A DNA stretch of 64,000 nucleotides from Thermoplasmata archaeon (GTDB lineage Archaea > Thermoplasmatota > Thermoplasmata > WALJ01), in NCBI GenBank assembly GCA_027006785.1, contig JALTFR010000042.1, forward strand, positions 30,113-94,112, written 5' to 3'. Position 1 is the stretch's first letter, and the number at the start of each line of letters is the position of its first letter. This document shows positions 1 through 31,582 of the stretch, one piece after another. The position numbers were made by a program, and so were the translations under genes. The notes beneath the pieces were generated by a model. The model was not told where the DNA came from. It saw only the letters and a program-made list of their open reading frames with translations, and ran no database searches.

Positions 1-573
1 ATGAGGAAGGGGCACGAGGTCATATCTCTGCACATGGACAACCGCCCTTTCACGGACGATATTCATTTTGAGAAGGTCAAGATGCTTGTGAAAAGGCTTC
101 AGGAAGTGCACGGCAGGGAGATACCGCTGTATCTTGCACCCCACGGGATACCCTCCCAGGAGACAATAGCGAAGAACTGCACCCGCAGGTTCCAGTGCGT
201 GATGTGCAGGAGGATGATGTTCCGCACGGGCGAGGCCTTCGCAAGGAAGGTGGGTGCGGATGCGCTCCTCACCGGTGAATCCCTTGGACAGGTGGCATCA
301 CAGACCCTCAGGAACATAAGCACAGAGTCACAGGCCATAGACATTCCGGTCATACGGCCGCTAATCGGCTTCGACAAGGAAGAGATCATAGCGATAGCGA
401 AGGAGATAGGGACTTTCGATATCTCCATAATCCCATCGGTATGCTGCACGATAACACCTAAGAGGCCCAGCATAGATGCGAAAATAGATGACATTCTCAG
501 GGAGGAACAGAAGATAGATGTGAGCGCTCTTCTGGAGAAGGTGATGGAAGGGAGCGTTAGGGTGGATGTGTGA
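1..573 (+). CDS. thiI: tRNA sulfurtransferase / thiamine biosynthesis protein ThiI, C-terminal fragment (gene begins upstream of window)
   Basis: ThiI-specific 'LLTGESLGQVASQTLRNI' motif and C-terminal region; ORF runs from window edge. Confidence 0.8.
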   Translation: MRKGHEVISLHMDNRPFTDDIHFEKVKMLVKRLQEVHGREIPLYLAPHGIPSQETIAKNCTRRFQCVMCRRMMFRTGEAFARKVGADALLTGESLGQVASQTLRNISTESQAIDIPVIRPLIGFDKEEIIAIAKEIGTFDISIIPSVCCTITPKRPSIDAKIDDILREEQKIDVSALLEKVMEGSVRVDV

Positions 574-593
574 GAAAAAAATGCAATACGCAT

Positions 594-630
594 GCCATTC
601 GGGGAAATAATAGCAGAGAAACATATAAGG
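594..630 (+). repeat. Direct repeat copy 1 (19-nt perfect core tgccattcggggaaataat plus conserved tatataagg tail)
   Basis: Matches 4863..4900 at about 30/37 positions; sits 32 bp upstream of the mcrB-like start. Confidence 0.8.
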
Positions 631-661
631 CCTTTGAGTTTGAGAAAGAATAGGTTTATAT

Positions 662-3181
662 ATGGATGTTGCATTGCTTTTAAAAGGTGAGTGTATGATA
701 TATCATGAAGATGAATTTACTAAAATACCTTTTGACAATAGGGCAAAGGAGAGACTGAAACATATATACTCTATCTTATATTATCTTGAAAGAGGATATT
801 CCTATCGGAAATCTATCAAAGAAACACTGAAGAGATTTCCTAGAGTGCACAACGAGCCCACAATAGAATCAAAAGTTACGACAGAAATAGGTCTCAAAAA
901 AGAGAGTTTTATGGAGCTATACAAAAAGGGAGAGCTTTTGGACTACCTAATATCAAAAAATAACTTGAATGAACATGACGCCCAAATTTTTGCAGAGCTT
1001 TTGAGAGGGCATCGAATAAGAACTGATAAAAAATATTATGAGCAAAGTGCGGGAATGAACATAGAAAAGATCCTCAAACTGTGGAAAGATTCTCTAGAAA
1101 AGCAACCTGAAGGGGTACACTTTAAAACCTATTCGAGATATGCCAAAATTAAGAAAATGAAAGAAGAAGTGAGAGACTTTGTTTATGATCCTACAGAGGA
1201 AAACTTCATAAAATTCTGGAACGAAAAAGACATATATGCTGCTCAGAGGGTTGCATCTGCGCGAAATGTGTGGGATTCAAACAATTCTGAAATTTTGGTT
1301 AGAACCCTGTCTGAAATGCTGGATAGCGAAGAATTCAAAGAAGAATGGGTTGAAAATGTTAAAAATGCCCGTAAAGTTTTGTGGGAACTTTTTGGATTAT
1401 TGCATATCGAAAAGGTTCCTCCAATAAACTCATGTACTGAAAACGGACTGGAATTTTTTGGATACAGGGTTAAACAAGACTATAAAGATTTACTATCAAA
1501 ATTCAATGAATTCAAAGATGATGTTTATATGGAAAATACTGGTCACATAACCGCAGGAAAGGACTATGAAATTCCAATAAACTTGGAGATTGACCAACTC
1601 TTCAATGTGATAGATAAGGTAAAAGAGTCTGATCTGGAAAAGGCAGATACAGAAGAGGAAAGATTGCTATATGAGGCCGTTCTTAGGGCCAAAAAAGAAA
1701 TGGGATTGATATCTGAGACAGAAAAAGAGGATGAACACTATTTTTGGTTGAATGCGGACCCATCCAGATGGACAGTTGAAGAGATTCGTAACGGAGATGT
1801 GGTAACATACACTTCACATACCAAAAATGGAAACAAAAGGCACATGTATTCTGCGTTTCAGAAGGCTAAAAAAGGAGATAAGGTGATATTCTACGAGACC
1901 AGCCCTCACAGAAAGGTTGTGGCCCTGGGTATTGTTGAAAAAGGTCTGCACGAAGATTATGATGAAGAACATGGTGAAAATACAGAGGTAATTTCTATAA
2001 GATTTCTCCGAGATTTAGGTCCTATTGACAGAGAAGAATTAAAGACCGTTCCAGAATTGAGAGATTTTTTTCCATTGAAAAAAGGCGTACAAGGAAGCCT
2101 CTTTGAAATGACGGAGAGTGAATTCCATGCCATACTGAATTTCGCAGATGCTTATGAGAAAACAGAAAGGGCCTCGGGTTTGAAATGGAATGATTTAAAG
2201 CCTGTGATTAATCACCTTAATGATGAGAGATTTGAGATTGAAGGTGCGCTTTACTTCCCTTATAACATAAAGGAAGAACTTGAATTACGGATTGGTTCGG
2301 CCATCTCATCTGGAAAACACATAATCCTCATCGGACCGCCGGGAACCGGAAAATCCAAGCTTGCGAAGATGGTGTGTGAACACTACAAAGGTAAAGAAAA
2401 ATACATTATGAGCACTGCTAACTCAGATTGGTCCACCTTTGATACCATTGGAGGATACTTCCCAAGTTCTGATGGAAAACTGGAATTCAAGACCGGCATA
2501 TTCCTGAAATGTTTCCGTGACGAGGAAGGCAATGCAGATAACAAATGGCTGATAATAGATGAAATAAACAGGGCAGATATAGACAAAGCTTTTGGCTCTC
2601 TTTTCTCGGCCCTTACTGGAGATAACATAACACTGCCCTTTGAGATGAATGGAAAGCCGGTTAAAGTTATCGGAAACCCGGATGCTGAGATACCAGATAC
2701 ACCCAACTGTTTTGTGATTCCTGAAGATTGGAGGATAATAGCAACGATGAATACCTTCGATAAGTCCTCGCTCTATGAGATGAGCTATGCGTTCATGAGG
2801 CGCTTTGCTTTCATACCTGTTGGTGTGCCTGATGAGATCAGAGAGGATGATATTCGAAGGTATCTTAAATCCTGGAACTGCGAGAATGAAAGAATAGACA
2901 AAAAGAAACTTCTTGATATATGGCAGTCTGTCAATAAGATAAGAAAGATAGGTCCTGCCATCGTAAAAGATATATGTGAATTTGTAATCCGCACAGGTGA
3001 TGATTATGCCAGTGCAATTATCATGTATGTTCTCCCTCAGTTTGAGGGCTTGTCTGATGAAAAAATAATTTCGTTTATGAAAGACATAAGGGAAATCACC
3101 GGAGAGGCTGGGGCGGATAAAATAGAAAAATTCTCCTATGATTTCTTCTCGATTGAAAGGGTCGCTGAGAAGGAGTCCTGA
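662..3181 (+). CDS. mcrB: McrB-like GTPase (AAA+ of McrB family) with N-terminal uncharacterized ~340-aa domain and central EVE/PUA-like domain
   Basis: Walker A 'LIGPPGTGKSKLA'; McrB signatures 'IIDEINRADI' and 'ATMNTFDKS...FMRRFAF' (compare MNTADRS / RRRF); EVE-like 'KKGDKVIFYETSP...GSLFEMTESEFHAI'; 4-nt gap to McrC. Confidence 0.75.
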   Translation: MDVALLLKGECMIYHEDEFTKIPFDNRAKERLKHIYSILYYLERGYSYRKSIKETLKRFPRVHNEPTIESKVTTEIGLKKESFMELYKKGELLDYLISKNNLNEHDAQIFAELLRGHRIRTDKKYYEQSAGMNIEKILKLWKDSLEKQPEGVHFKTYSRYAKIKKMKEEVRDFVYDPTEENFIKFWNEKDIYAAQRVASARNVWDSNNSEILVRTLSEMLDSEEFKEEWVENVKNARKVLWELFGLLHIEKVPPINSCTENGLEFFGYRVKQDYKDLLSKFNEFKDDVYMENTGHITAGKDYEIPINLEIDQLFNVIDKVKESDLEKADTEEERLLYEAVLRAKKEMGLISETEKEDEHYFWLNADPSRWTVEEIRNGDVVTYTSHTKNGNKRHMYSAFQKAKKGDKVIFYETSPHRKVVALGIVEKGLHEDYDEEHGENTEVISIRFLRDLGPIDREELKTVPELRDFFPLKKGVQGSLFEMTESEFHAILNFADAYEKTERASGLKWNDLKPVINHLNDERFEIEGALYFPYNIKEELELRIGSAISSGKHIILIGPPGTGKSKLAKMVCEHYKGKEKYIMSTANSDWSTFDTIGGYFPSSDGKLEFKTGIFLKCFRDEEGNADNKWLIIDEINRADIDKAFGSLFSALTGDNITLPFEMNGKPVKVIGNPDAEIPDTPNCFVIPEDWRIIATMNTFDKSSLYEMSYAFMRRFAFIPVGVPDEIREDDIRRYLKSWNCENERIDKKKLLDIWQSVNKIRKIGPAIVKDICEFVIRTGDDYASAIIMYVLPQFEGLSDEKIISFMKDIREITGEAGADKIEKFSYDFFSIERVAEKES

Positions 3182-3182
3182 T

Positions 3183-4541
3183 ATGCCGGCAAAAGTCAAT
3201 GAAGAAACCATACTGAATGAAATCTCGGCAGATATCCCGCACTATCTTAGAAATGGAAGGATAGATGAGGTTATGAAATCTGCCGCAGAAGCGGATTTGA
3301 ACATAAAGGACCTGGACAGGCTTTTGAGGATACACTTCGTTCTTACAGAAAAGGTGAAAGAGTTCTCGGAAAAACTCGAAGGAAGGATAAGAAGAATAAA
3401 AACAACCGTCAGTTCACACAAGAGTGAATATCGAGGGCAGGTGAGAGGGCGCATATCATGGAAAGATACTTTTTCCAGAAGAATGGCCACAAATCCGCTG
3501 GATAAGACACTTTTCATGTGCGTTGAAAGGGAAAGGGAATATAATATCCCTGAAAACCTTGTGCTTAAACGAATTCTCCAGATAATCCACGATATAGTCT
3601 ATTCTGACCTGAAACCCGCCATAGACGGAAGATATAACTGGGTTGATATCTGGAGTGATGAAAAAGGTGTGAAAGAGGTTCTAAATTCGATTTATTTTAA
3701 GAATATATATCTGAAAAGGGTTTCTCTGGAGGACCTCCACATAACTGAGAACATGATTCAAAGGGCCAAAAAATCCAGGCAACCGCTTTATCGAGATGCT
3801 GCATATCTTCTGGAAAGGTACCGAAAGATAACAGGATATAACATAGACGAATCTGAAGCCCGTGAGCTCTTGAAGAACACATTCATAAAGCCTGAGAAAA
3901 CAGAGGAGCTTTTTGAGCTGTATTGGATAATAAAAATTATGAACTCCTTCGGAAAGGAAATCTGGAAGAAGCCCATTATTGAAAAAGACAACGATTCAGT
4001 CATTGCTGAAGGAATGTTTGGAGATTTCAGGTATGTTATTTATCACAACTCCACAGGCAGCTTTCATTTTCATGAAAAACTTCCTGATGACAATGATGAT
4101 CTTGCAAAAATCAATAAAGCATATCCGTTTTTGGCGAGAGAGGCGAAAGTTGTGGAAAAACTGAACGGGATGGTGGGTGTGGATGAAAATAGTCTCTGGG
4201 GTGGTCGCCCAGATATAGTGATAGAAAAATATCACAAAAACAGTGACGATCTCGTTTCTGTCTTCATAGCTGAAGTGAAATACACAAACAATAAACGCTA
4301 TGCGATTGAAGGACTGAAGGAACTTCTGGAATATCTGGCTTTTATAAAGAAAAATGAAGAATATCTGGAAAAGTTCAATTCGCTTTTTGAAGGACTTGAA
4401 AAGGTTAAAGGCGGTCTTTTCACAGACCAGATAGACAAATTTTCCATTTCTGAAGATGAGAAAATCTTCCACATCATGTTCGGGGATTCAGAAGATAAGA
4501 TACGAAAAAGGATTGTTGAACCTACGCCGGATATGGAATAG
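3183..4541 (+). CDS. mcrC: McrC-like nuclease subunit (N-terminal McrC domain with 'RGRISW' motif; C-terminal PD-(D/E)xK nuclease)
   Basis: ATG 1 nt after mcrB stop; 'YRGQVRGRISW'; C-terminal 'GRPDIVIEKY...FIAEVKY' PD..ExK motif. Confidence 0.7.
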   Translation: MPAKVNEETILNEISADIPHYLRNGRIDEVMKSAAEADLNIKDLDRLLRIHFVLTEKVKEFSEKLEGRIRRIKTTVSSHKSEYRGQVRGRISWKDTFSRRMATNPLDKTLFMCVEREREYNIPENLVLKRILQIIHDIVYSDLKPAIDGRYNWVDIWSDEKGVKEVLNSIYFKNIYLKRVSLEDLHITENMIQRAKKSRQPLYRDAAYLLERYRKITGYNIDESEARELLKNTFIKPEKTEELFELYWIIKIMNSFGKEIWKKPIIEKDNDSVIAEGMFGDFRYVIYHNSTGSFHFHEKLPDDNDDLAKINKAYPFLAREAKVVEKLNGMVGVDENSLWGGRPDIVIEKYHKNSDDLVSVFIAEVKYTNNKRYAIEGLKELLEYLAFIKKNEEYLEKFNSLFEGLEKVKGGLFTDQIDKFSISEDEKIFHIMFGDSEDKIRKRIVEPTPDME

Positions 4542-4862
4542 CTTCACTTAAATTTGATTCTTTACCTCTCTTCACCATCCTCTACACCTATCCATGCTCT
4601 CCCCTAACCCATTTCCTTTCCCTTCAGTTTTTCGATCCAGTGGAGGCTCTTCTCCATATCCCCTTTCCTTCCCATCTCCCTGAACATCTCAAGGCTTTCC
4701 TGCAGGTACTCCATGCCCTGCTCTCCCCCTGTGACGATGCCTTTCAGCCTGAGGTACCATCCCTGCCTCTCCCGAGATGAAAAGCGTGCGCCCATGCCCG
4801 CCTTCGGCATCCCTGAGGAGTGAATCCAGTTTCCCGAGCTCTGCCCCCCGGTCCGCAATGCC

Positions 4863-4900
4863 TGCCATTCGGGGAAATAATGGTATAAAGGTATATAAGG
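4863..4900 (+). repeat. Direct repeat copy 2 (same 19-nt core plus tatataagg tail)
   Basis: Identical core to 594..612; sits 250 bp upstream of the OLD-family gene. Confidence 0.8.
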
Positions 4901-5149
4901 GGTTTGGGGGGTAGATGTATATCTGTTATTTCAGAGGAAGAGCGCTCGGAGAGATAGATTTATATAATGAAAAGGCATAGTGTGGGTAAGATGATATGAT
5001 AAAGAGCGAAGGAGAACTGATGGTTTCGGTTAATCAAAAAAAGAGGAAAAGAACATGAGCAAGATTGCTACACGATTTGCCATAACATCGGTTAAACGGC
5101 TTCACACAGTGAATGCGCAGATTTTCAATAATCTTAGTGAGGAATAAGT

Positions 5150-6877
5150 ATGAAAATAAATACATTTTCAATAAAAAACTATAGATCAATCGTTGATAAA
5201 CAAGAGATAACTCTAAAAGATTTATCTATAATTATAGGTCCTAATAACGAAGGAAAATCTAACATATTAAACGCAATTACTTCTGCATTATCTATCTTAA
5301 AATCGTATGAGTATTCTTTCACCCACCTACTACGAAGATATTATCGAAAAATAGATCGTGATGAGCATACATCTTCTAGTTATGAAAGGACATCTTCTTA
5401 TAAGTGGGAGCGGGATTTTCCAATAAAGATGCAAGGCGAGAATAAGGATGGTAAGACGGTCTTCGAAGTCGTTTTTGATTTTACAAACGAAGAACTGAAA
5501 GATTTGAATAAATTAACTGGACTGAATCTCAATTACGATATTATTTTCACTTTGGAATTAGGAAAAGACTCAGAAAATATTAGTATAAATTATCCCGCAA
5601 ATCGTCGAATAAATTTGAACAAACGAAAAATAAAAATTTTAGAATATGTATCTCAACACATTGCTATTGAATATATCGGTTCTGTAAGAACTGCAGAAAG
5701 GACTGCTGACTTGATTGATAGTCTTATTAGAAGAGAACTTAATCAATTGGAATATAAAGCCGAATATGAACGGCTCTTAAAACGCTTAGAAAAAATGCAA
5801 GAACCCGTGTTAAAGAAAATATCAAAAGAGGTTAGCAAAAGCATTAAACAATTTTTGCCAAATGTGAAAAAGGTAGAAGTAACTTCTGTTGACCGCGTGA
5901 GGCGAATAATGCACGAATCATGTGAAGTTTATGTAGATGATGGAGATAAAACTCCGTTAGAATTAAAAGGTGATGGAATAAAGAGTCTGTTGGCCATATC
6001 ACTTATGCAACATCTTGCTAAGCAGAGGCATACTAACCAAGATATAGTGTTTGCTATTGAAGAGCCTAAAATTCATCTGCATCCCGATTCAATCCATAAA
6101 TTAAAAGAAGTTTTACTAGAGATATCTGAGCAATATCAAGTTATATTAACTACACATTCACCCATTTTTGTAGACAGAGGGCATCTTGATAGAAATATTC
6201 TTGTAACAAAAAATAAAATAAAAACGGTTCATGATATTTCTGAGATTAGAAACGAATTGGGCATCAGGGTTTCCGACAATTTGAAATCCGCCAGTCTAGT
6301 AATATTAACCGAAGGAGAAAACGATATTCAAATATTGAAATCGTGGTTGTTTGAAATGTCACCCAAGGTTAGAGATGCTTATGCCCGTGGGTTGTTTGCT
6401 TTCGCATCCATGGGTGGGTGTAAAAATCTTTCATATCAGGTAAACTTGCATCGGAATTTGATTTGCAGTGTATTGGTTTATCTGGATGCAGATTCTGACG
6501 GGAAATCTGCATACGAGAAAGCAAAAAGTGATGGTCTCCTTACAGATAAAGAAGTGTTCTTTCCTATTATCCGGTCATTCCGTGAAACGGAGATAGAAGA
6601 TTTAGTTAAAATTAGTATATATAAAAAAAATATTGAAGATAAATACGGGGTTAAATTGGAACGCGATATTTTCAAAAATAATAAAAATAAATGGTCTGTG
6701 AGAATTGGGGGGGTGTTTGAAAAGCAAGGAAAACTGTGGACTGGTGACATTGAGGCAGATGTAAAAAAAATAGTATGTGATGCAGTAGTAAGGGATGGTT
6801 TAAGAAGTCTAAAGCAGACTAACGCAGGTTCTATCAAAAATCTACAAAAAAGGATAGAAGAAGAATTAAATCTCTGA
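5150..6877 (+). CDS. OLD-family ATP-dependent nuclease (AAA_15/ABC-type ATPase + C-terminal TOPRIM); GajA-like, no helicase partner
   Basis: P-loop 'IIIGPNNEGKSNILNAI'; 'GDGIKSLLAISL'; Walker B 'IVFAIEEPKIHLHP'; H-loop 'ILTTHSP'; TOPRIM 'LVILTEGENDIQIL' and 'YLDADSDGKS'; SD tgagga upstream. Confidence 0.75.
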   Translation: MKINTFSIKNYRSIVDKQEITLKDLSIIIGPNNEGKSNILNAITSALSILKSYEYSFTHLLRRYYRKIDRDEHTSSSYERTSSYKWERDFPIKMQGENKDGKTVFEVVFDFTNEELKDLNKLTGLNLNYDIIFTLELGKDSENISINYPANRRINLNKRKIKILEYVSQHIAIEYIGSVRTAERTADLIDSLIRRELNQLEYKAEYERLLKRLEKMQEPVLKKISKEVSKSIKQFLPNVKKVEVTSVDRVRRIMHESCEVYVDDGDKTPLELKGDGIKSLLAISLMQHLAKQRHTNQDIVFAIEEPKIHLHPDSIHKLKEVLLEISEQYQVILTTHSPIFVDRGHLDRNILVTKNKIKTVHDISEIRNELGIRVSDNLKSASLVILTEGENDIQILKSWLFEMSPKVRDAYARGLFAFASMGGCKNLSYQVNLHRNLICSVLVYLDADSDGKSAYEKAKSDGLLTDKEVFFPIIRSFRETEIEDLVKISIYKKNIEDKYGVKLERDIFKNNKNKWSVRIGGVFEKQGKLWTGDIEADVKKIVCDAVVRDGLRSLKQTNAGSIKNLQKRIEEELNL

Positions 6878-6909: not shown

Positions 6910-8283
6910 TCACTCAAACCGCACCTTCTGCCCCTCTTTGCTGTCCTCTATGATGATGCCGAGCGCCTTTAATCTGTCCCGTATCATGTCGGATGTCGCC
7001 CAGTCCCTATTCTCCCTTGCCTGCTTCCTTATGTCCAGAAGTATCTGTATTATCTCCATCTCCTTTCCCGATGACTGAGCGCTCGCGAAGAGATTGATTC
7101 CGAGGACATCTGCGATTTCCTTTGCTATTTTCAGGTATCCGGCTGTGAGGTTGGGGTTGTCCCTGTGCTTGTTGGCCTCGCTGAAGAGTGAGAAAAGGTT
7201 CGCTATGGCCTCCCTCGTGTTGAAGTCGTCGTCCATGACCTCGATGAACCTCTCCCTGAACTTCACGGCCTCCGAGATGTCCGGTTCGGAATCGCCGGCC
7301 ATTTCTTTGAGGGAGAGAGCGCTCCGCTTCATACTCTGCAAGGCCCTGTGAGTTTCTTCCAGATCATCGAAGCTGAAGTCTATCGGGCTCCTGTAATGCG
7401 TGTAAAGGAAGTAGAACCTGAGGGTGTCAGCGGGATACGTCTTCATCATCTCCCGTATGTTCAGGACATTTCCGAGGGACTTCGACATCTTCTCCCCTTT
7501 CAGGTTCAGGAATCCGGTGTGCAGCCAGTACCTCACGAAGGGCTCCTTTCCGCTGATGCTCTCCGCTATTGCTATCTCGGATTCGTGGTGCGGGAATATC
7601 AGGTCCTGCGCTCCCCCGTGCAGGTCATATTGCTCCCCGAAGTATGTGAATGTTATAGCCGTGTCCTCCACATGCCAGCCCGGCCTTCCCTTTCCCCAGG
7701 GCGATTCCCACCAGGGCTCTCCCTCCTTGTAGGCCTTCCAGAGCGCAAAGTCCTCGGGGTTCCTCTTGTTCTCGTCCGGGGCCACCCTTGCGCCGGCCTG
7801 AAGCTCGTCCATCTTCTGCCCGGACAGCTTCCCAAATCCTCCGAACTTGTTCACCTCGAAGTACACGCTCCCGTTGGATTCGTAGGCATATCCCTTCTCT
7901 ATGAGGGCCTGAACCTGACCGATTATCTCATCTATGTGGTCCGTGGCATTCGCATAAAGGTTCACGGAAGTGACACCCAGCGCCTCCATGTCCTCCATAA
8001 AGGCCTTTGTGTACTGCATAGCGAGTTCCTTTACGCTTATTCCCCTCTCGTTGGCCCTCTGTATCATCTTATCGTCAATGTCGGTGATGTTCATGAGATA
8101 GAATACCTGATATCCCCTGAACCTCAGGTATCTGGCTATCGCATCGAATGCGACATATGTTCTGGCATGGCCTATGTGTGGCATATCGTAGACCGTGGGG
8201 CCGCAGACGAACATGTTGACCCTGTTCCTCTTTATCGGCCTGAACTCTTCCTTCTCTCTTGTCAGCGTGTTGTATACCTGCAT
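6910..8283 (-). CDS. cysS: Cysteinyl-tRNA synthetase
   Basis: 'MQVYNTLTREKEEF' N-terminus; HIGH 'MPHIGHARTY'; KMSKS 'GEKMSKSLGN'. The ORF track extends to 8571 across the tRNA, so the downstream ATG is preferred. Confidence 0.85.
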   Translation of the reverse strand: MQVYNTLTREKEEFRPIKRNRVNMFVCGPTVYDMPHIGHARTYVAFDAIARYLRFRGYQVFYLMNITDIDDKMIQRANERGISVKELAMQYTKAFMEDMEALGVTSVNLYANATDHIDEIIGQVQALIEKGYAYESNGSVYFEVNKFGGFGKLSGQKMDELQAGARVAPDENKRNPEDFALWKAYKEGEPWWESPWGKGRPGWHVEDTAITFTYFGEQYDLHGGAQDLIFPHHESEIAIAESISGKEPFVRYWLHTGFLNLKGEKMSKSLGNVLNIREMMKTYPADTLRFYFLYTHYRSPIDFSFDDLEETHRALQSMKRSALSLKEMAGDSEPDISEAVKFRERFIEVMDDDFNTREAIANLFSLFSEANKHRDNPNLTAGYLKIAKEIADVLGINLFASAQSSGKEMEIIQILLDIRKQARENRDWATSDMIRDRLKALGIIIEDSKEGQKVRFE

Positions 8284-8296
8284 GAGATCACCGGAG

Positions 8297-8369
8297 TGGG
8301 CGAGGAGGGAATCGAACCCCCAGAAACCCGATCTGCAGTCGGGCACATTAGCCACTCTGTCACTCGCCC
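8297..8369 (-). tRNA. tRNA-Cys (anticodon GCA)
   Basis: Manual fold: 7-bp acceptor GGGCGAG/CTCGCCC; anticodon stem CCCGA/TCGGG; loop CTGCAGA (U33, GCA, R37); T-arm GGGGG-TTCGATT-CCCTC; 14 nt upstream of cysS on the same strand; discriminator reads A. Confidence 0.65.
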
Positions 8370-9711: not shown

Positions 9712-11007
9712 ATGATCGACCCGAGTACAACGAAATACCTGATAAAAGCACATATAACCGCAGAAGGAGTTGTGGAAAAACCTGACGTGATAGGGGCCAT
9801 ATTCGGACAGACCGAGGGTCTTCTGGGAGAGGAACTGGACCTCAGGGATCTTCAGAAAGGCGCCAGGATAGGAAGGATAGAAGTAGAAGTGAAATCTGAG
9901 GGTGGAAAGTCACGAGGAGAGGTTCTGATACCATCTAGCCTTGACCAGGTTGACACCGCAATACTGGCCGCAGCCCTTGAAACTATAGACAGGATAGGGC
10001 CGTGTAAGGCCACGGTTTATGTTGAGAGCATAGCTGATGTAAGGGCTGAAAAGAGGCAGAAGATACTTGAAAGGGCGAAGGAGCTTCTGACAGACATGCT
10101 TCAGGAGTCCAAGACACTAGGAGGAAGCCTCGCTGATTCCATCAGAGACTCAGTTCACCTCGAAGAGATAACGAGTTACGGACCGGAAAAATGTCCTGCA
10201 GGACCTCTTGTGGACGTATCGGATGAGATTCTGATCGTTGAGGGCAGGTCTGATGTACTGAACTTGCTGAAACATGGAATAAAGAATACAATAGCCGTTG
10301 AAGGGACCAATGTTCCAAAGACAATACAGGAACTCAGCAAACAGAAGACCGCAACCGCATTCGTTGATGGGGACCGAGGCGGCACACTGATACTTAAGGA
10401 ATTGCTTCAGGTAGCTGAGATAGACTTCATAGCCAGAGCCCCACCGCACAACGAGGTGGAAGAACTTACTAGAAAACAGATAATGAAGGCCCTTAAAAAC
10501 AAAATGCCTGTTGCACAGTATATAGAGATGTATGGCATAGATAATGGCAGTACAAAGGATGCTCAGGAGAAAAAAGAGCCTCAGAACGGGAAGAACGGCA
10601 AAGGGAAGAATGACAACCAGATTGCACAGAAAAAAGATGAGAAAAAGGCACAGAAACCCGAGAAACAGGCCTCTAAGGAGAAAGAAAAGGAAGAGAAAAG
10701 GAAGAAACTCACGCCTCAGCAGGAGAAATTCTACGAGATGCTGAGAGATATGGCTGGAAAGAAGAAGGCAAGACTCCTGAACTCAAAAGGAGGAATAGTA
10801 ACGGAAGTTGCCACCGATGATCTGATAAAAATTCTTGGAAATGAAAAGAAATCCGTGAATGCGATAGTCTTCGACGGAGTGATAACTCAGAGGCTTGTGG
10901 ATATGGCTTACAAAAAAGGAGTTAAAATGATAGTTGGCATCAAAATGGGAAATGTGGCAAAACTTCCGTCTTCAATATCTGTGTGGACGAAAAAGGACTT
11001 TGAATGA
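9712..11007 (+). CDS. dnaG: Archaeal DnaG-type primase (TOPRIM), with a lysine/glutamate-rich insert
   Basis: 'MIDPSTTKYLIKAHITAEGVVEKPDVIGAIFGQTEGLL'; TOPRIM 'ILIVEGRSDVLNL...AVEGTN...FVDGDRGG'; SD aggag 8 nt upstream. The ORF track start at 9547 adds 55 atypical residues. Confidence 0.8.
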   Translation: MIDPSTTKYLIKAHITAEGVVEKPDVIGAIFGQTEGLLGEELDLRDLQKGARIGRIEVEVKSEGGKSRGEVLIPSSLDQVDTAILAAALETIDRIGPCKATVYVESIADVRAEKRQKILERAKELLTDMLQESKTLGGSLADSIRDSVHLEEITSYGPEKCPAGPLVDVSDEILIVEGRSDVLNLLKHGIKNTIAVEGTNVPKTIQELSKQKTATAFVDGDRGGTLILKELLQVAEIDFIARAPPHNEVEELTRKQIMKALKNKMPVAQYIEMYGIDNGSTKDAQEKKEPQNGKNGKGKNDNQIAQKKDEKKAQKPEKQASKEKEKEEKRKKLTPQQEKFYEMLRDMAGKKKARLLNSKGGIVTEVATDDLIKILGNEKKSVNAIVFDGVITQRLVDMAYKKGVKMIVGIKMGNVAKLPSSISVWTKKDFE

Positions 11008-11575: not shown

Positions 11576-14500
11576 ATGAAAAAAATAGCATTAGCAGTCA
11601 GTATGATTCTTCTGCTGGGTTCTCTGTTCCCGGCAATTGTGATACTTGATGGAGAGGTAAGGGCAGAGCGCAGCAGTGAACCGGAAATAAAGTATACTTT
11701 GCATGCTCCCATAAGGATAGAGAACGATACGGATTTCGCAAACCAGGCGACGAGCGAAGGTTGGAGCGGAGATGGGAGCTCAGGAAATCCTTATCTGATA
11801 GAGAACTATGAGATAGACGCTCATGGGTCTGGAAGTGCCATTTACATTGGAAATACTACGGTTCATTTTACAATACGCTCATGTTATTTTTACAATACGA
11901 GTGATGTTTCATACCCGTATTATTATGGTTCTGGGTTGACCCTCCGTAATGTGACGACGGGAGTTGTGGAATCCAGCAGGATATGGAACAATGAGAACTA
12001 CGGGGTCTTTATGCAGTATTCGATGGGAGTCGTTGTATCCGGCAATAACATATCATACAATGACCAGAGAGGAATATATCTTATGGAATCCGTGAACAAT
12101 ACCATAGAGAACAACGGAATGTATGCTAACCAGTGGTATGGAATAGATCTCTCCACATATTCGAACAACAACAGCATCATAAACAATACCATACTGCGCA
12201 CGGCATCGCACGGCATCTCACTGTCCAACTGTAATGATACGGTTATAAGTAACAATACCATAAAGTACAACTCGCATTACGGGAGCATAGACCTCTCATA
12301 CTCGCTCGGGGCCGTGATAAAGAATAACACGATGGAAGACTATGACAGCCATGGTGGGATATATGTTTCAGGAGACCAGATGAGATACTGGAACACACAC
12401 GACATAGATACGAGCAATATCCTGAAAGGCAAGCCTGTCTACTACTGGAAGGACCGCACATCGGGTAGTGTTCCTTCGGATGCGGCGCAGGTCATCCTCG
12501 CCAACTGTTCGGGCGTATCTGTAGAGAACATGAACATCAGTATGGTTTACGAGGCCATACAGCTGGGTTTCTCAGACAAGAATCACATAAAAAATGTAAG
12601 CCTCTACAAAGATTCGTGGGGCGTGAGACTGCTGTATTCGGACCATAACATCCTTTCGGATAGCGAGATAAGAAACAATGATGACGGCATATGGATAGAC
12701 AGGTGCACGGAGAACACCATAAGGAACAACACCGTCGCGGATTCGAACTATTATGGAATATACATGGCTAGTTTTGATACGACCCCTGTTGTGTGGGGAA
12801 ACTCTTTCTACCACAATAATCTTATAAACAATGCGCATCAGTTATATTATAGCAGTAACAATGAAATAGACAGATGGAACCTGGCATATCCGCAGGGCGG
12901 GAATTTCTGGTCGAACTACAACGGTAACGATATCGAATGCGGAGAATCGCAGAACATATCCGGAAGCGATGGGATGGGGGATAGCCCTCTGACAATATAC
13001 GGGAATCAGGATGCATATCCGCTGATGGCGGCATGGGAAACAGCGCCAAAGGTCATCTCAAGCACCCCCGCAGACGGAGAGAATTCCGTTGCACTGGGAA
13101 AGAACATAAGCATCGTCTTCAGCAGGAGCATGAACACTTCGGTAATTCCCAAACTTCACCAGATAGATGGAACGGGTGTTGTCTATTCATTTTCTGGATG
13201 GTCCAGCACAAATCTGGAGAACGACACCGCAACATGGACTCATGATGACTGGAATGAGAAGGAATGGGTGGGCCTGGAACTCTGCAATTACTCCGATACT
13301 GAAGAGCGCTACGGATTGCCACACATATGGTCATTCAAGACAGTGGACCTCACTGCGCCCCATGTGTCATCGACTGACCCTGCAGACGGGGAGGCTTCCG
13401 TTTCTCTCGCTCAGGATGTGAAGGTCGTCTTCGATGAAAGCCTGGACACATCCGTCATTCCACAGTTCAGCGAACTGAGTTCTTCGGGAGTATCTTACAC
13501 CTTTGCGGGTTTTTCATCCACAAATGAAAATAACGACACCGCAACATGGACGCACGGTTCATGGCCCGAAAAATACGCGGTGGAACTGAAGGTCACGGGG
13601 GCAGAGGACAGCTCCGGTAATGTGATGGGTACGGCATATGTCTGGAACCTCACCACGGCCGACCTGACACCGCCGAATGTGATTGGGACAGAACCATATG
13701 ATGGAGAGACAGGTGTCAACAAATCGGTATCCATAGTGGTAGTGTTTTCGGAAGAGATGAACACTTCATACAATTCCGGCCACCCGACCCTTATTCTGGA
13801 GAACGGAACATACGGCGGAAGCTGGACATTCCTCGGGTGGAGCAGCACGAATGTTATGAACGATACGGCCAGATGGTCACATGATCCCTTCGAGGAAAGG
13901 GACAGGATATCACTGAGGGTGCAGAACTATGCGGACCTTGCGGGAAATGCGGGAAGCCCGTATGAATGGACATTCTACACCGAGGATACCCAGGCGCCTT
14001 CGATTACAAAGACAACCCCTGAACAGGGGGATTCCGGTGTGAACGAGAACGAGAATGTCACGATAACCTTCTCAGAAAGCATGAACACATCCGCACCACC
14101 GGTTATTACGCAGACCGGGGGAAATCCCGTAAATTACACATTCTCCCACTGGGAGAGCGTTTATGTGGCAAACGACACGGCCATCTGGACCCATGACCCA
14201 TGGTCATCGGAAGACTCCGTAACCCTCATGGTTTCAAATTACAGCGACCCTGCAGGGAACATCGGTGTCAATTACACATGGTCATTCGACATAAGAGACT
14301 ATGTGGGGCCCCATGTCCTGTCCACGGACCCTGCGGACGGCGATGTGTGGGTTCCTCTGGACAAGGTGGTTACCGTGGTCTTCTCAGAAACCATGAGCTA
14401 TGCCAGGGTCTATGGAGAAGTGGGGGTCACATACACATTCCTCGGATGGAGCACGACCTATGTCCACAATGACACCGGTATGTGGAGCCACACAAACTGG

Positions 14501-17437
14501 AGCGAGAACATGGACCTGCTGATATCTGTGGATAATCTTCAGGATGAGGCAGGAAATGCGGGAGACAAATATCAGTTCACCATACATACCGCAGACCTCA
14601 CGAAACCCCTGGTGAGCGACCTGACGCACCCCTACAATGGGCAGAAGAATGTAGCTTACGGCGCCAATGTGAGCGTCGTCTTCACGGAGTCCATGAACAG
14701 CTCGGTCACACCCACACTGGTTCAGAATGCTGGAGATATGGTGACCTACACCTTCCTCGGCTGGTTCACCACGGACAACGATAATGATACTGCGATATGG
14801 TCGCACGACGACTGGACCGATTCTGACACGGTCAACCTCACGGTTTCAAATTATAGTGACCGTGCAGGTAACATTGGTGATGCATATACATGGGAGTTCA
14901 GGGTTGAGGATCACACCGCCCCCCATGTGGTGGCCACCTCTCCCCCCGACGGAGCCATAAATGTCTCCGCACATCTGGCCAGTATAACGGTCACATGGTC
15001 GGAGCCGATGGACTCAAATGGAAATCCGGCATTGGACATCGTTGAATCGGACGGGGCAAGACCGAACATCGTATTTTACAGGTGGTTGAACGACACGACG
15101 GCGATTTTCAATGTCAGCGGAAACTTCTCGGAATCCGATAATATAGAACTGAGAGTTGGCACGGTACAGGATCCGTACAACAACGATGCGGTGACATATT
15201 ACTGGTGGATATACACCTACGACCCTGTTCCCCCGACTGTCTCTGATGCCATCCCTCTTCCGGGAGGTGCTGCGGAAAAGAACGCCACTGTTACAGTAGC
15301 ATTCAGCGAGAAGATGAATGAATCTGTCATTCCACAGATAACACAGGCGGACGGTGACCCGGGCAGCTGGGTCTTCCTCGGATGGAGCACAGGATACCAT
15401 AATGTTTCCGGAGAGATGAAAGAGGTGTCCGAGGCGAACTGGGCCCACAACAACTGGACCACCGACAGGGTTAACCTGACGGTATCCGGATACAGGGACA
15501 TATGCGGAAATTGGGGACAGCCGTATTCATGGGAATTCAATGTCTCTGTCTACGATGACCATTCCATGATACGGATAAACAGCAATGCGGAGTTCGCTAA
15601 CATGGCCTTATCCGAGGGATGGGCCGGGGACGGAAGTCCGGGCAACCCATACATCATCGAGTACTACGAGATAAACGGCGACGACGGAAGGGGAGGATAC
15701 TGCATTTACATAGGGAACACGACATCGAACTTCATAATACGCCATAACAAGCTGAACTACGCCTATACTGACAATGCGGTGTATCCATACTATCCGAGGG
15801 CATCCGTGGTCCTTTACAATGTCACGGGCGGAAAGGTGGAAGATAACAGCATGCTTGTGGAGTCGGATTTTGCAGTCTATACCTCTGAAAGCCAGAATGT
15901 GAACATAAGCGGGAACACCATACACAACGCATGGTGGAACGGAATGAACATAGAGGATTCGCAGTATATCACGATAGACGGGAACGAATTGACCGGCGGC
16001 GGGAACGGGCTTTACCTGAAGAACAGCCCGTATGCCAGCATACGCAGGAATATCCTGTCTCACAACGGTGACCAGCAGGGTATAACGCTCGAGAACTCAA
16101 GTTATGCGGTGCTCGTCGGGAATCTCATATCGGATTATGCCTATGGAATAGTCTTCGACCCCAGCGATGGAACGGATGTTAACATAACCCTGGAAGGAAA
16201 TGCCATGAAGAACTGCGGACTGATGATATGGGGATGGATGGCAGAGCACTGGACATCCCATACGATAGTGAACAACACCGTGAACAGCAGGCCGCTTGTG
16301 TTCCTGAACGGAGTGGATGATTCCCAGATAAACTACACTGTACAGGCCGGCCAGATATACCTGGTGGACTGCTACAATGTATCAGTGTCATATCAGTTCA
16401 TCGTAAGGGCAAGCATCGGCCTTTATGTGGCCATGTCACAGCACATAACCGTGGTGAACTCCACATTCGGATACAACAACTATGGAATATACATGGTGGG
16501 CAGCGACTCGAACCTGATATGGCACAACAACTTCGTGGGGAACGATGTGCAGGCCCATGATGACGGAGGCTCCGGAGATAACGCATGGAACGAGACCTAC
16601 CCGTATTCAGGAAATTACTGGGACGACTACGGAGGGAGCGATAACAACCTAGGGCCCGGGCAGAACTACCCGGGAAGCGACGGCATCGGGGATTCGCCCT
16701 ATTCGATAGACGGAGGCGGTGCGGAGGACAAATACCCGCTGATGAACCCGACGAACCTGACCCTGTACTACACTCCGGGATGGCACATGGTGGCCTTCCC
16801 GTGGCTCGACAGCCCGACGGATATAACGGATGTCCTCTCCGGGCAGTCATGGGACAGGGCAATGGTGTATGTCAACGGCACATGGCACACATACAATGCG
16901 AACAGGGATGCTAAGTTCAACGGAGATTTCCCGAAGATAGACAGGAGCATGGGGCTGTGGGTGAACTTCACGGACAACAGCACGCTGATAGCGCCCTCTC
17001 CGATACACACGGGAAACATAACCGTGTATCTACATCCGGGCTGGAACCTTGTGGAAGGCGGTCTGCCTTTCCTTGTCAGCGAGGTCTTTGAAGGAGTGGA
17101 TCACAGCCATGTGGAGAGCGCTAACCTGACGGACCCGTCTGAGATGGAGCACATGACGGAGAACGACACAATGATGCCGGGAAGGGGCTACTGGGTCTAT
17201 GTAGATGGGAATTACACGATAAGCATAGATACTGACCTCTTCGAGATAACCGTTCAGGAAGGACTCATCTATAACAGCCATCCTGTTCAGGACATGGATT
17301 CCGACCCTCCTGCAGATGTCAGCAGTTCAACAGCGCCTATCACAGACAATACGCCCGATCATACGCCTTTCATAGCGCTCTCGGTTGCGATCATCGGCAT
17401 GCTGGGAACAGCATGGGCCATAAGGAGAAGGCGCTGA
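11576..17437 (+). CDS. Giant (1953 aa) membrane-anchored surface glycoprotein: signal peptide, two right-handed beta-helix (NosD/PbH1-like) modules flanking at least 8 SbsA-type Ig-like domains, C-terminal TM anchor plus RRRR
   Basis: N-terminal 'MKKIALAVSMILLLGSLFPAIVIL'; repeated 'NNTI..N' beta-helix repeats at both ends; repeated 'VVFSESMNTSV.P'-type motif 8 times; C-terminal 'FIALSVAIIGMLGTAWAIRRRR'; dozens of N-x-S/T sequons; SD gaggag upstream. Confidence 0.8.
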   Translation: MKKIALAVSMILLLGSLFPAIVILDGEVRAERSSEPEIKYTLHAPIRIENDTDFANQATSEGWSGDGSSGNPYLIENYEIDAHGSGSAIYIGNTTVHFTIRSCYFYNTSDVSYPYYYGSGLTLRNVTTGVVESSRIWNNENYGVFMQYSMGVVVSGNNISYNDQRGIYLMESVNNTIENNGMYANQWYGIDLSTYSNNNSIINNTILRTASHGISLSNCNDTVISNNTIKYNSHYGSIDLSYSLGAVIKNNTMEDYDSHGGIYVSGDQMRYWNTHDIDTSNILKGKPVYYWKDRTSGSVPSDAAQVILANCSGVSVENMNISMVYEAIQLGFSDKNHIKNVSLYKDSWGVRLLYSDHNILSDSEIRNNDDGIWIDRCTENTIRNNTVADSNYYGIYMASFDTTPVVWGNSFYHNNLINNAHQLYYSSNNEIDRWNLAYPQGGNFWSNYNGNDIECGESQNISGSDGMGDSPLTIYGNQDAYPLMAAWETAPKVISSTPADGENSVALGKNISIVFSRSMNTSVIPKLHQIDGTGVVYSFSGWSSTNLENDTATWTHDDWNEKEWVGLELCNYSDTEERYGLPHIWSFKTVDLTAPHVSSTDPADGEASVSLAQDVKVVFDESLDTSVIPQFSELSSSGVSYTFAGFSSTNENNDTATWTHGSWPEKYAVELKVTGAEDSSGNVMGTAYVWNLTTADLTPPNVIGTEPYDGETGVNKSVSIVVVFSEEMNTSYNSGHPTLILENGTYGGSWTFLGWSSTNVMNDTARWSHDPFEERDRISLRVQNYADLAGNAGSPYEWTFYTEDTQAPSITKTTPEQGDSGVNENENVTITFSESMNTSAPPVITQTGGNPVNYTFSHWESVYVANDTAIWTHDPWSSEDSVTLMVSNYSDPAGNIGVNYTWSFDIRDYVGPHVLSTDPADGDVWVPLDKVVTVVFSETMSYARVYGEVGVTYTFLGWSTTYVHNDTGMWSHTNWSENMDLLISVDNLQDEAGNAGDKYQFTIHTADLTKPLVSDLTHPYNGQKNVAYGANVSVVFTESMNSSVTPTLVQNAGDMVTYTFLGWFTTDNDNDTAIWSHDDWTDSDTVNLTVSNYSDRAGNIGDAYTWEFRVEDHTAPHVVATSPPDGAINVSAHLASITVTWSEPMDSNGNPALDIVESDGARPNIVFYRWLNDTTAIFNVSGNFSESDNIELRVGTVQDPYNNDAVTYYWWIYTYDPVPPTVSDAIPLPGGAAEKNATVTVAFSEKMNESVIPQITQADGDPGSWVFLGWSTGYHNVSGEMKEVSEANWAHNNWTTDRVNLTVSGYRDICGNWGQPYSWEFNVSVYDDHSMIRINSNAEFANMALSEGWAGDGSPGNPYIIEYYEINGDDGRGGYCIYIGNTTSNFIIRHNKLNYAYTDNAVYPYYPRASVVLYNVTGGKVEDNSMLVESDFAVYTSESQNVNISGNTIHNAWWNGMNIEDSQYITIDGNELTGGGNGLYLKNSPYASIRRNILSHNGDQQGITLENSSYAVLVGNLISDYAYGIVFDPSDGTDVNITLEGNAMKNCGLMIWGWMAEHWTSHTIVNNTVNSRPLVFLNGVDDSQINYTVQAGQIYLVDCYNVSVSYQFIVRASIGLYVAMSQHITVVNSTFGYNNYGIYMVGSDSNLIWHNNFVGNDVQAHDDGGSGDNAWNETYPYSGNYWDDYGGSDNNLGPGQNYPGSDGIGDSPYSIDGGGAEDKYPLMNPTNLTLYYTPGWHMVAFPWLDSPTDITDVLSGQSWDRAMVYVNGTWHTYNANRDAKFNGDFPKIDRSMGLWVNFTDNSTLIAPSPIHTGNITVYLHPGWNLVEGGLPFLVSEVFEGVDHSHVESANLTDPSEMEHMTENDTMMPGRGYWVYVDGNYTISIDTDLFEITVQEGLIYNSHPVQDMDSDPPADVSSSTAPITDNTPDHTPFIALSVAIIGMLGTAWAIRRRR

Positions 17438-23268: not shown

Positions 23269-26200
23269 TCAGAAAGACGAAACGCCCGATTCATCCTCCT
23301 GCTCTCTCTGAGGTGGGTTTTCCCCGGAGCTCTGTGGCGGTGCTTCTTGAACAGGTGGCTGGCTCTGCATTGGCATCACGGGATTCGTTTCCGGAGGTCT
23401 CTTTCTCTTTGCAATAAGTACTGCTGCGATGATGCCCACTATGACCAGTATCAGCAGAATGTACAGCCATGGCATACCGGATGAAGACTTCTTGCTGGCG
23501 GGAAGTTCCACTGCAGGAATATTTTTATGCTCTCCGGGAGAGACGCTTGTCTCAATCGTTTTCTTCTCATATCCATCCTTTGATACGGCCAGTGTGTGGT
23601 TCCCCGCATGAACCTCTATCTCGAAATGGCCGCTGGCATCCGTTATCGCTGTTTCTCCGGTATCAAGTCTTACCGTTGCCCCCTCTATCGGGTTCCCATT
23701 CTCATCCGTGACGGTTCCGGTTATGGTGGCCATATCTTCTGGAGCATTGTGTGCAGTCGTGAAATTCCATGTGTAATCCAGCCTATTGCCTGCCAGATCG
23801 GAGCCTGTTACATGAACCACATATTTCCTGCCGTGCTCCAGTTCAGAAGAGGGTGTGAATGTAAGGGTCCTTCCGCTCCAGCTAATATTTCCAGATAGGC
23901 CATCGCCAATTACCTTCACTGTGCTGACATTCATGTCCTCGGAGAATCTCACTGTTATCGTCGTATCAACGGACACATTGTTTCCTGTGGGAGATGCACT
24001 TGTAACTGAGGGTGGTGTGGTATCGGTTTCAAATCCAGCACTGGCGGTTTTTTCGTTCCCTGCACGATCTACCGCCTTAACTTCCACAGTATGGCGCCCA
24101 TCAGATATTCCAGTGAAGTCATAAGAGGTGTTCTTTCCGACGCCTATCCATGAACCCCTGTCCATTCTCACTTCGTAGTGGTCTATCTTTGAGGTGTTGT
24201 CCGAAGCATGCCACCGAACGGTCATGGAATCCGTGTTGAAAAGTCCTCCGTCTTCCGGAGAGTCTATGCTCAGATCAGGGACTATTGTATCGTATCCGGC
24301 TATGGCTTCGGCACTGTTCTTCTCCTCGCTCTTTCCCGAAGCGTCCGATGCCTTAGTGTAGAACTGATAATATCCATCACCATCGCTGAAGATGAAGTCC
24401 CTGCTTCCAGTCCATGATGTGCCCGATATGGATATGGTCACATACTTGATCCATGCGGACCATGTTGAGTTATCCTCGCTGAAGCGATAGTATATCGTTA
24501 TATTTGACAACTCTTTGTCATCGCTAGCAGTTAGTTCGAGAGTGACCTTGGATGTGTGCCAGTAGGGGGTGACCGGAGATGTGCTGGATGTGGGTGCCTG
24601 TGAATCCAAGGTTTCGGTGGTGAAGCTCCATGAATAATCATCCTTCGGAGAGCCTTCCGACGTGCCGTTTTTGTTGCCGTCCAGACTGTTGCCATTTGTA
24701 TCATTGGCTATGCTACCGTCCACTTTGACGGTGTATGTGGTCCCTCCCTCCAGATCTGAAGACGAAGTGAATGTCATGGTTCTTTTCGCTGCATCCCATG
24801 AGAAATCCCCTGTTATCGCCGGGTTTATAGAAAAGGCCTTTTCCACACTGCTGGTGTTCATGCTCTCATTGAATGTTATTGTTATAGCGGAACTGACAGA
24901 TATATCTGTACCTGTTGGAGAAACAGATACGACTGTTGGCGGTGTGGTGTCCGTTGATTCTGTGGTAAAATCGAAAGAGTAAGGAGCTCCTGAAAGTGTG
25001 TTTCCAGCAGTGTCATTTGCAGATGTTATGTTCATCCAGTATCTCGTTGCAAGAGCAAAACTTGCATGTGAGAGTGTTGCCTGTGTTTTATCGGAATTCC
25101 ATGAGACACTCCATCCGCCGGGGTCCGGTTCGCAGGTGAAATTGAATGTGCTGGCATCTATGGATTCTGAGAAGGATATCACCACATCCTGAGTGATGGA
25201 AACGCCTGTTGCTCCATCCGATGGGTTGGTCGAGCTCACTGTGGGCTGTGTGCCGTCATAGGTATAGGATGAGGCTTCCGGCGCATCGCCCGATGAAGGT
25301 GCGGACTCTCCATCACCCACGGCCATCCACCCATATGTTCCATCAGAGGGTATGGTCCAGTCGTATTGGCCATCTATGCTGGAATCGCTTCCGATGTGCG
25401 TCCATGTGTTGCCATTGTCCGTGGTGTAGTAGAGATCAACGGATGAAACGCCTACCTCATAGGTGTATTCTATGGTTATGTGTGCCACATTGGAAGGGTC
25501 GCTATTGGTTGGGCCGGTGGCCGTTGCCGTGTGTGAGGATGCAGAGACTGTATCAAAGCTCCATGTATGGTCCGCCTGAGTGTTTCCTGCCACATCCTCA
25601 GCTCCACTTACCGTGAGTTCTATGGTGTCGCTGTTATCCCAGTCGTTATGGGTCCATGTTGCGGTGTCGTTATCAACATTTGTTGTAGTCCATCCCGCAA
25701 ATGTGTATGTTACGGATGTTCCCGATGTCTGGGACAGCGTTGGGGTTACGGATGTGTCCATGCTCTCATCGAATATAACAACAATATCCTGACCTACGGA
25801 AACCTCTGTTGCTCCATCCGATGGGTTGGTCGAGCTCACTGTGGGCTGTGTGCCGTCATAGGTATAGGATGAGGCTTCCGGCGCATCGCCCGATGAAGGT
25901 GCGGACTCTCCATCACCCACGGCCATCCACCCATATGTTCCATCAGAGGGTATGGTCCAGTCGTATTGGCCATCTATGCTGGAATCGCTTCCGATGTGCG
26001 TCCATGTGTTGCCGTTGTCCGTGGTATAGTAGAGGTCCACGGATGTTGCTCCCGTGTCATTATCGTATGTTATCGTTATGTCCGCAACATTGGAAGGGTC
26101 GCTGTTGGTTGGGCCTGTGGCCGTTGCCGTTGGGCCTGAAGCGATTGTGAAATTCCACGAATAAGGTGAGCCCGACAGTCCGTCCATATCCGTATAGTTT

Positions 26201-31467: not shown

Positions 31468-31582
31468 CCATATGCCTCCTCGATCTTTAAATTTCCAGAT
31501 AGACATCTGGAAATACTATATATAGTTTTCTCAGATTACAACTCTATGCGCTCTCCGCTTGTGAAAAATAGCAAAACATATT

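Follow-up and report, generated by a model that had tools for sequence, protein, structure and literature searches.

What left a short direct repeat on both sides of a McrBC-type module in an uncultured Thermoplasmata archaeon, and what does this repeat record? The locus lies near the left end of a 64,000-nucleotide stretch (GenBank assembly GCA_027006785.1, contig JALTFR010000042.1, positions 30,113 to 94,112 of the forward strand), which is called the window here and to which all coordinates refer. Between the genes thiI and cysS, the window carries a McrBC-type gene pair, the remnant of an opposite-strand gene, termed X, and a gene for an OLD-family ATPase-nuclease; one copy of the repeat precedes McrBC and the other lies between the X remnant and OLD. 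An earlier note, made from the sequence alone, had proposed either insertion of McrBC by site-specific or homologous recombination, with duplication of a target or promoter, or two promoters sharing one operator. The analysis presented below indicated that the repeat is most likely the scar of a cassette gain and not the attachment (att) site of a self-mobile element. In its specific form, this reading takes the two copies as two alleles of one spacer, set in tandem by the homology-driven addition of a cassette, and we give it about an even chance of being correct.

Two exact copies of the 19-mer TGCCATTCGGGGAAATAAT were present in the window (593-611 and 4863-4881); the identity of the two sites was as previously described, and so was the position of the second copy, but the first copy had been placed at 594-612. 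Two sites were still obtained when up to three mismatches were allowed, a search in which none of 100 dinucleotide-preserving shuffles gave any site. A third copy was absent from the 64-kb window with up to four mismatches, and the 19-mer was also absent from the 5.4 kb to the left of it. The motif (t)atataagg does follow both copies, as had been noted, but not at a spacing of 9 nt: ATATAAGG was found at 623-630 and 4893-4900, 11 nt past the core (10 nt counting the preceding c/t). The repeat was also longer than the roughly 37 bp first reported, since gapped local alignment returned one 54-column block (582-636 against 4854-4906) with 42 matches, 10 mismatches and one 2-nt indel (78% identity, z = 9.7, 0/500 shuffles). 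Within this block, the identity outside the perfect core was approximately 66%, the imperfect homology running 11 and 24 nt past the core, and beyond the block the sequence on either side was no more similar than shuffled sequence. The dyad symmetry of the core was weak (4 bp, CATT/AATG), and neither the search against Rfam nor RNA folding of both strands gave any signal in the window copies. An independently assembled metagenome scaffold from ENA (L028) was 100% identical to the window over positions 1-5286, both copies included, so that a mis-assembly is unlikely.

The repeat made most sense when read on the minus strand. In copy 2, the ATG of X (4868) lies inside the repeat, and the minus-strand TATA box CCTTATATA is centred about 27 nt upstream of it. 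Approximately 27 nt is the standard archaeal distance from TATA box to transcription start, so the mRNA of X would be leaderless. Aligned on the ATG, the minus strands of both copies read AAA(GG/CC)CCTTATAT(G/A), followed after a further 22 nt by ATGGCA, and the TATA-to-ATG geometry of copy 1 (CCTTATATG) is that of copy 2. Furthermore, the TATA context of the copies, AAAGGCCTTATATG and AAACCCCTTATATA, matches the evident TATA box of the S8e ribosomal-protein gene in the same window, CAAGGCTTATATA, and is therefore a context that this genome uses. Taken as such a leaderless promoter, the 54-nt block reaches from about -38 to +15, with its left end at codon 5-6 of X and its right end some 6 nt upstream of the minus-strand TATA box. 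Each copy thus looks like a core promoter of X, from the B recognition element (BRE)/TATA box to the start site, together with the first five codons. Following the ATG of copy 1, the T7 tract and the end of thiI are met after 13 codons, which identifies this copy as a stub. The suggestion that the copies are the promoters of McrB and OLD was not borne out, as they read best as the TATA box and start of X, and both plus-strand genes have nearer TTTATATA boxes outside the repeat (that of OLD at 4959-4967). The T7 run is the complement of an A7 tract that immediately follows the thiI stop codon (574-580). Lying about 20 nt beyond the ATG of the stub, it would serve as an archaeal termination signal on the minus strand and would limit antisense transcription into thiI.

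The remnant of X itself consists of two pieces. The N-terminal one (4868 to 4761, 36 aa) encodes MAGIADRGAELGKLDSLLRDAEGGHGRTLFISGEAG and reaches the start of a Walker A motif, and the C-terminal one (51 aa, 4759 to 4607) is out of frame with it; the remnant ends at 4604. The sole Pfam match of the N-terminal piece was AAA_16 (E = 0.013), with residues 7-36 falling on profile positions 5-34, which in this domain run from its start up to Walker A. X therefore probably encoded an AAA_16-type ATPase. The only database match of the remnant was found on scaffold L028, 100% identical to the window. The presence of X also means that McrBC is not exactly bounded by the repeat, as had been stated: the McrC-like gene ends at 4541 and is followed by a 62-nt spacer and then by the X remnant (4604-4868) before copy 2 is reached, while the end of copy 1 lies 26 nt from the McrB-like start at 662 (59 nt from the alternative start at 695) and that of copy 2 lies 244 nt from the OLD start (5150). 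The G+C content was 0.38/0.39 in McrBC, 0.33 in OLD, 0.57 in the X remnant and 0.53 in thiI and cysS. The bracketed segment thus combines low-GC McrBC with a host-like, GC-rich remnant and is a mosaic.

The corresponding loci of relatives were located with ThiI orthologues as anchors (96-73% identity). In the relative L020, from assembly GCA_054002815.1 (ThiI 85% and cysS 90% identical), the thiI-cysS gap measures 580 bp and holds an antitoxin/ParE pair, with McrBC and OLD both absent, and the run of genes on its right (cysS, DUF211, SRP19, S8e) is shared with the window. A single core copy, tttCATTCGGGGAAATAATg, is found there 43 nt after the thiI stop codon, in agreement with the expectation of one copy in a relative without McrBC; as OLD is missing too, the variable unit is the whole thiI-cysS interval. 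The L020 core shares 16 identical nt with copy 1 (596-611) and 17 with copy 2 (4866-4882). These 16-17 nt are all that the window shares with this site, now occupied by the ParE toxin-antitoxin (TA) cassette: the L020 spacer outside the core could not be aligned with either window copy, its TATA box has been replaced, no second core flanks the TA cassette, and no remnants of the TA genes were found in the window. Four-fold degenerate sites of thiI, cysS, DUF211 and S8e were only 41-52% identical between the window and L020, and the neutral probability of a 16-mer staying identical was about 3e-6. Since synonymous sites are near saturation, the core was either kept by selection or exchanged between lineages.

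L022 is a closer relative than L020 (ThiI 96% identical, four-fold identity 0.56) and has a different AT-rich gene at the locus. The first 38 nt after its thiI stop codon matched those of the window without any shift (25/38, the highest score among 949 offsets), and this in-place orthology of the left part of copy 1 shows that copy 1 occupies the ancestral site. The L022 core itself has drifted, with 14/19 positions retained; its ATG is now ATA, and the TATA-to-ATG spacing has been lost through a deletion of about 13 nt. In the more distant relatives L023-L027, other genes follow thiI and the core was absent. The CysS protein places the organism in Thermoplasmatota; around the cysS genes of four further relatives (L005-L008), the contigs end at cysS or the neighbours differ, and synteny there was uninformative. 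With McrBC and OLD in the window, a ParE toxin and its antitoxin in L020 and another AT-rich gene in L022, the thiI-cysS interval is a variable defence/TA hotspot flanked by core genes in this clade of Thermoplasmatota, as sampled in three lineages.

Some further features of these loci were recorded. In L020, the core lies inside a locus-specific inverted repeat (10655-10725, plus strand; CCTGTC...GACAGG and TTCATTC...GAATGGA); this inverted repeat, which neither window copy contains, has a predicted fold of greater stability than shuffles (z = -2.7). An 86-aa gene without a Pfam match overlaps the thiI stop codon in L023 (6514-6774), L025 (10303-10563) and L024 (7710-7814); it is truncated in L026 and L027, in front of a PQQ/beta-propeller protein of at least 821 aa, and is absent from the window, L020 and L022. 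Three candidate homologies were rejected. A derivation of copy 1 from the 86-aa gene (L023, L025, L026) looked plausible by eye and with MAFFT, but in local alignments the two scored no higher than shuffled sequence (z <= 1.7); the left flank of the L020 core showed no significant resemblance to the 5' coding region of X in the left flank of copy 2 (z = 0.3); and tblastn found nothing to make the downstream gene of L022 an allele of the McrB-like gene.

The addition of a cassette could have proceeded as follows. The ancestral spacer would have had the order thiI, X on the opposite strand, the X promoter, a cassette slot and cysS. X would then have decayed unequally by lineage, leaving a bare stub in one allele and a 265-nt remnant in another, and the slot would have held different cassettes. 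By homology-driven recombination, a donor segment of one allele would have been added to the other, either through a single crossover of a circular intermediate in the shared promoter block, for which the 19 identical bases are the simplest location, or through homology-facilitated illegitimate recombination anchored in thiI. The outcome would be the arrangement seen here: thiI, stub with core, McrBC, X remnant, core, OLD, cysS. Such a duplicated spacer explains why the block stops sharply, at codon 5-6 of X on one side and a few nucleotides upstream of the TATA box on the other, and why the identity of the copies is complete in the stretch that a crossover would use and about 66% over the remaining block. 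It also explains the GC-rich, host-like fragment between two low-GC cassettes, and a homology-driven process accounts for the lack of a recombinase gene in the DNA scanned. The resident left side of copy 1, orthologous in L022, is expected if that side belonged to the recipient, and the dead stub of L022 and the replaced TATA box of L020 both fit a decaying promoter. The order of these events is our reconstruction, as is the reason proposed for the conservation of the core: selection on the initiation region, past or present, or exchange between lineages.

Several results weigh against this reconstruction. No parental haplotype, either thiI-stub-core-OLD or thiI-X remnant-core-McrBC, was found. 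The identity of X is weak (a single match at E = 0.013 over 36 residues, with an unidentifiable C-terminal piece), and a protein search among 5.8 billion clusters gave no homologue of X other than itself. The histogram of TATA-to-ATG distances across the window was too noisy to show a general -26 TATA/leaderless architecture, and the perfect 19-nt run is only mildly unusual given the divergence of the block (P = 0.055). The core is identical at 16-17 of 17 positions in L020 despite four-fold sites near saturation. As X is dead in every genome seen and the TATA box of L020 is gone, present-day promoter function does not explain this conservation, and the drift to 14/19 in L022 makes uniform selection a poor fit. 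A perfect core in L020 would require past selection on the initiation region with recent, independent deaths of the gene, another function, or exchange between lineages, and is not fully explained by the duplicated spacer.

That conservation could point to a bound site: the core might be the operator or upstream activating site of a transcription factor for plus-strand modules (McrBC, OLD and the L020 ParE TA), maintained by selection, with the duplication equipping each module with a site. It does stand upstream of a plus-strand defence or TA module in all three cases and in the same orientation, and 16-17 nt are perfectly kept between genomes with near-saturated synonymous sites, the core being perfect while the remaining block is about 66% identical. 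Nor is it a generic promoter element, as judged from the approximately 70 kb of this genome and the relatives' loci to which the copy count extends; the earlier note had held that copies upstream of many unrelated genes would make it one, and none were seen in those 70 kb. An operator would, however, have to tolerate a variable spacing between the core and the plus-strand TATA box that follows (about 43 nt for McrB, 77 nt for OLD and 31 nt for the L020 TA), a dyad of only 4 bp, a closer relative that has drifted to 14/19, and the lack of an adjoining regulator gene, and it leaves both the end of the block at codon 5-6 of X and the well-placed minus-strand TATA box unexplained. We hold this alternative to be unlikely. 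Supposing instead that the repeat had no function and no special origin, it would have arisen by local tandem or slippage duplication, or by gene conversion between leftovers, the L020 core being a lucky survivor between rearrangement junctions. The existence of only two copies, a perfect run that is only mildly improbable (P = 0.055) and the drift in L022 are compatible with this. Nevertheless, tandem duplication cannot account for 4.2 kb of foreign low-GC DNA between the copies, and the 16-17 identical bases at the orthologous L020 site have the neutral probability of about 3e-6 given above, which together make a neutral leftover very improbable.

Recombination at a dedicated site had to be weighed as well. 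The core could be the att crossover site of a recombinase encoded elsewhere, with McrBC and the X remnant forming an element between attL and attR and the hotspot resulting from repeated targeting. Perfect 19-nt direct repeats around a 4.27-kb insert, a single copy at the same place in L020, and a core identical across lineages with otherwise unalignable spacers, as if incoming elements re-supplied the site, are what such an origin would produce. Against it, no integrase, recombinase or transposase was found in the segment, in its neighbours in the island, or among the 20 large open reading frames (ORFs) scanned in the region from 11 to 55 kb; part of the bracketed DNA is a host-like, GC-rich remnant, which makes it a mosaic; the 11 and 24 nt of imperfect homology past the core are atypical of a fresh attL/attR pair; and the site is not in a tRNA gene. 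Moreover, the best core matches at the McrC/X and OLD/cysS junctions were 10/19, no better than in random segments, and the TA cassette of L020 has no second core. Beyond the locus, no related match was found in viral, genome or metagenome collections: the 19-mer had four matches in the genome collection and 11 in the metagenome collection (this genome being in neither), a chance number, with unrelated flanks on bacterial contigs or contigs of unknown origin, and the one match of the 17-mer in viral contigs, in the metagenome-assembled genome of a giant virus, also fits chance. We consider an att site decidedly improbable. We give very little credence to a broader proposal, in which the thiI-cysS hotspot is defined by the 16-19-nt core, CATTCGGGGAAATAAT, acting as a dedicated recombination or capture site, and in which McrBC, OLD and the ParE TA were each delivered beside a copy of it by a recombinase encoded elsewhere; if true, this would amount to a cassette-capture system for archaeal immunity genes without a linked integrase. 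An integron-like array would differ from this locus in having an adjacent integrase and recombination sites at all cassette boundaries, the McrC/X and OLD/cysS junctions included. Of the options first put forward, recombinational insertion with promoter duplication is the best supported, and its site-specific form is unsupported in view of the missing recombinase and of the other junctions, which lack core-like sites.

The reading of the repeat as a duplicated spacer agrees with what is known of other hotspots. Core defence hotspots (cDHS) in Pseudomonas aeruginosa lie between conserved core genes and are free of mobile-element genes (PMC10250203); exchange by homologous recombination of the flanks has been proposed for them, their median size is 26 kb, and the way in which bacterial hotspots of this kind fill up is still an open question (PMC10250203). 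The interval described here resembles them in its two conserved housekeeping flanks (thiI and cysS), its variable low-GC defence content and its lack of mobile-element genes. It differs in being archaeal, in its size (0.6-6.3 kb compared with the median of 26 kb) and in being seen in few genomes; in addition, it carries an internal direct repeat, made of spacer sequence, as the record of one addition event, and the nearest tRNA gene (tRNA-Cys) lies beyond cysS and not at the hotspot edge. The locus is also comparable with Campbell-type or homology-facilitated illegitimate integration, where an insert comes to lie between two copies of a resident sequence, perfect at the presumed crossover and diverged outside, one flank of copy 1 being resident as judged from the in-place orthology in L022. 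The homology is, however, very short here (54 nt, with 19 perfect), and with the donor and empty recipient haplotypes unseen such a mechanism is an inference. With the attL/attR pairs of archaeal proviruses and of plasmids integrated in tRNA genes by tyrosine recombinases, it shares perfect short direct repeats around foreign DNA and a single copy in a relative, but here there is no integrase, the site is outside a tRNA gene, the insert is a mosaic and imperfect homology continues past the core. The repeat is most likely a scar of an ordinary kind, with a core that is conserved unusually well.

If the two copies are indeed two alleles in tandem, the locus would be a small, readable example of defence-hotspot growth between core genes in an uncultured archaeon, in which cassettes enter via shared spacer sequence and leave behind duplicated promoter stubs and pieces of dead defence-like genes. 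The scar of one addition event would bear on how such hotspots are filled. The conservation of 16-17 nt across genomes with near-saturated neutral sites is the remaining puzzle, and there was no sign of a new kind of system. The features of the locus are collected in Table 1.

Table 1. Features of the thiI-cysS interval and its repeat (window positions)
Feature	Position	Strand	Description and basis
thiI, 3' part, short form	1..573	+	PP-loop ThiI, ~210 aa; Pfam ThiI 7.7e-50; left flank
Repeat copy 1 (54-nt block)	582..636		thiI-proximal; on the minus strand a promoter-like stub, then a T7 run; local alignment
Perfect 19-nt core, copy 1	593..611		TGCCATTCGGGGAAATAAT; minus-strand ATG at 598-596
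TATA box, copy 1	622..630	-	CCTTATATG; from sequence; resembles the S8e promoter CAAGGCTTATATA
Likely McrB-specific TATA box	655..662	+	TTTATATA; outside the repeat; from sequence
McrB-like protein	662..3181	+	N-terminal region, EVE domain, McrB-type AAA+ GTPase; GC 0.38
McrC-like PD-(D/E)xK nuclease partner	3138..4541	+	probable start 3183, 452 aa; overlaps the McrB-like gene
Gene X remnant	4604..4868	-	265 nt; translations, AAA_16 match, tblastn coordinates, GC 0.57
Repeat copy 2 (54-column block)	4854..4906		heads the X remnant; local alignment
Perfect 19-nt core, copy 2	4863..4881		minus-strand ATG of X at 4868-4866
TATA box, copy 2	4892..4900	-	CCTTATATA; from sequence; centred ~27 nt upstream of the X ATG
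OLD-family ATPase-nuclease	5150..6877	+	Pfam AAA_15 7e-30; PADLOC Old 1.6e-36; GC 0.33
cysS	6910..8283	-	Pfam tRNA-synt_1e 2e-120; right flank

The bracketed module had been called McrBC-type, and on the evidence of profiles and structural models the label holds. The McrB-like protein (828 aa from the alternative start at 695) matched the Pfam families EVE (2e-09) and AAA_5 (3e-17), the NCBIfam model McrB at 9.9e-16, below the equivalog cut-off, and the PDB structures of McrB 6hz4 (1.1e-14) and 6ut3 (1.2e-12); its EVE domain suggests the reading of modified bases. Its McrC-like partner had no match in Pfam, PADLOC, NCBIfam or PDB sequences. It belongs to a family of 499 representatives in whose alignment the GRPD...GEVKY motif, of the PD-(D/E)xK type, is invariant, and the four best PDB fold matches of its AlphaFold (AF2) model (predicted local distance difference test score, pLDDT, 85) were all McrC chains, the best with E = 1.1e-05, with low TM-scores of 0.2-0.3. 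As in type IV McrBC systems with EVE readers, an EVE domain is joined to a McrB-type GTPase, and the next, overlapping gene encodes a McrC-fold PD-(D/E)xK nuclease. The module differs from those systems in an extra N-terminal region of about 350 aa and in a partner too diverged for the McrC models of Pfam, PADLOC and NCBIfam, and its activity is a predicted one. Residues 1-350 of the McrB-like protein (662-1700, plus strand) had no family match ahead of the EVE domain, and residues 278-373 gave weak PADLOC matches to the C-terminal part of GajB (UvrD-like helicase) models.

The OLD protein was assigned with the matches listed in Table 1, a Toprim domain not being separately detected by Pfam. 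Only 2 nt separate the OLD start codon from the end of a 30-codon ORF, MSKIATRFAITSVKRLHTVNAQIFNNLSEE (5055-5147, plus strand), which has a purine-rich stretch ahead of it. This ORF showed no similarity elsewhere in the window; it could encode a leader peptide for OLD or a small partner. The metagenome scaffold that carries both repeat copies (ENA ERZ23495671 scaffold_257) breaks at 5286, 136 nt into the OLD gene, and is identical to the window up to that point; the break may reflect strain heterogeneity of the OLD cassette.

To the right of the hotspot, a tRNA-Cys (GCA) gene (8296-8369, minus strand) shares the strand of cysS and lies upstream of it, 12 nt from its start; the tRNA and its cognate synthetase therefore look co-transcribed, and both the arrangement and the spacer are kept in L020. 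Further along the window, two very large ORFs were found at 11576-17437 (plus strand, 1953 aa) and 23269-31506 (minus strand, 2745 aa), in surroundings that are otherwise of a housekeeping kind (Lhr helicase, gyrase A/B, NrdD, thermosome and a KaiC-like pair).

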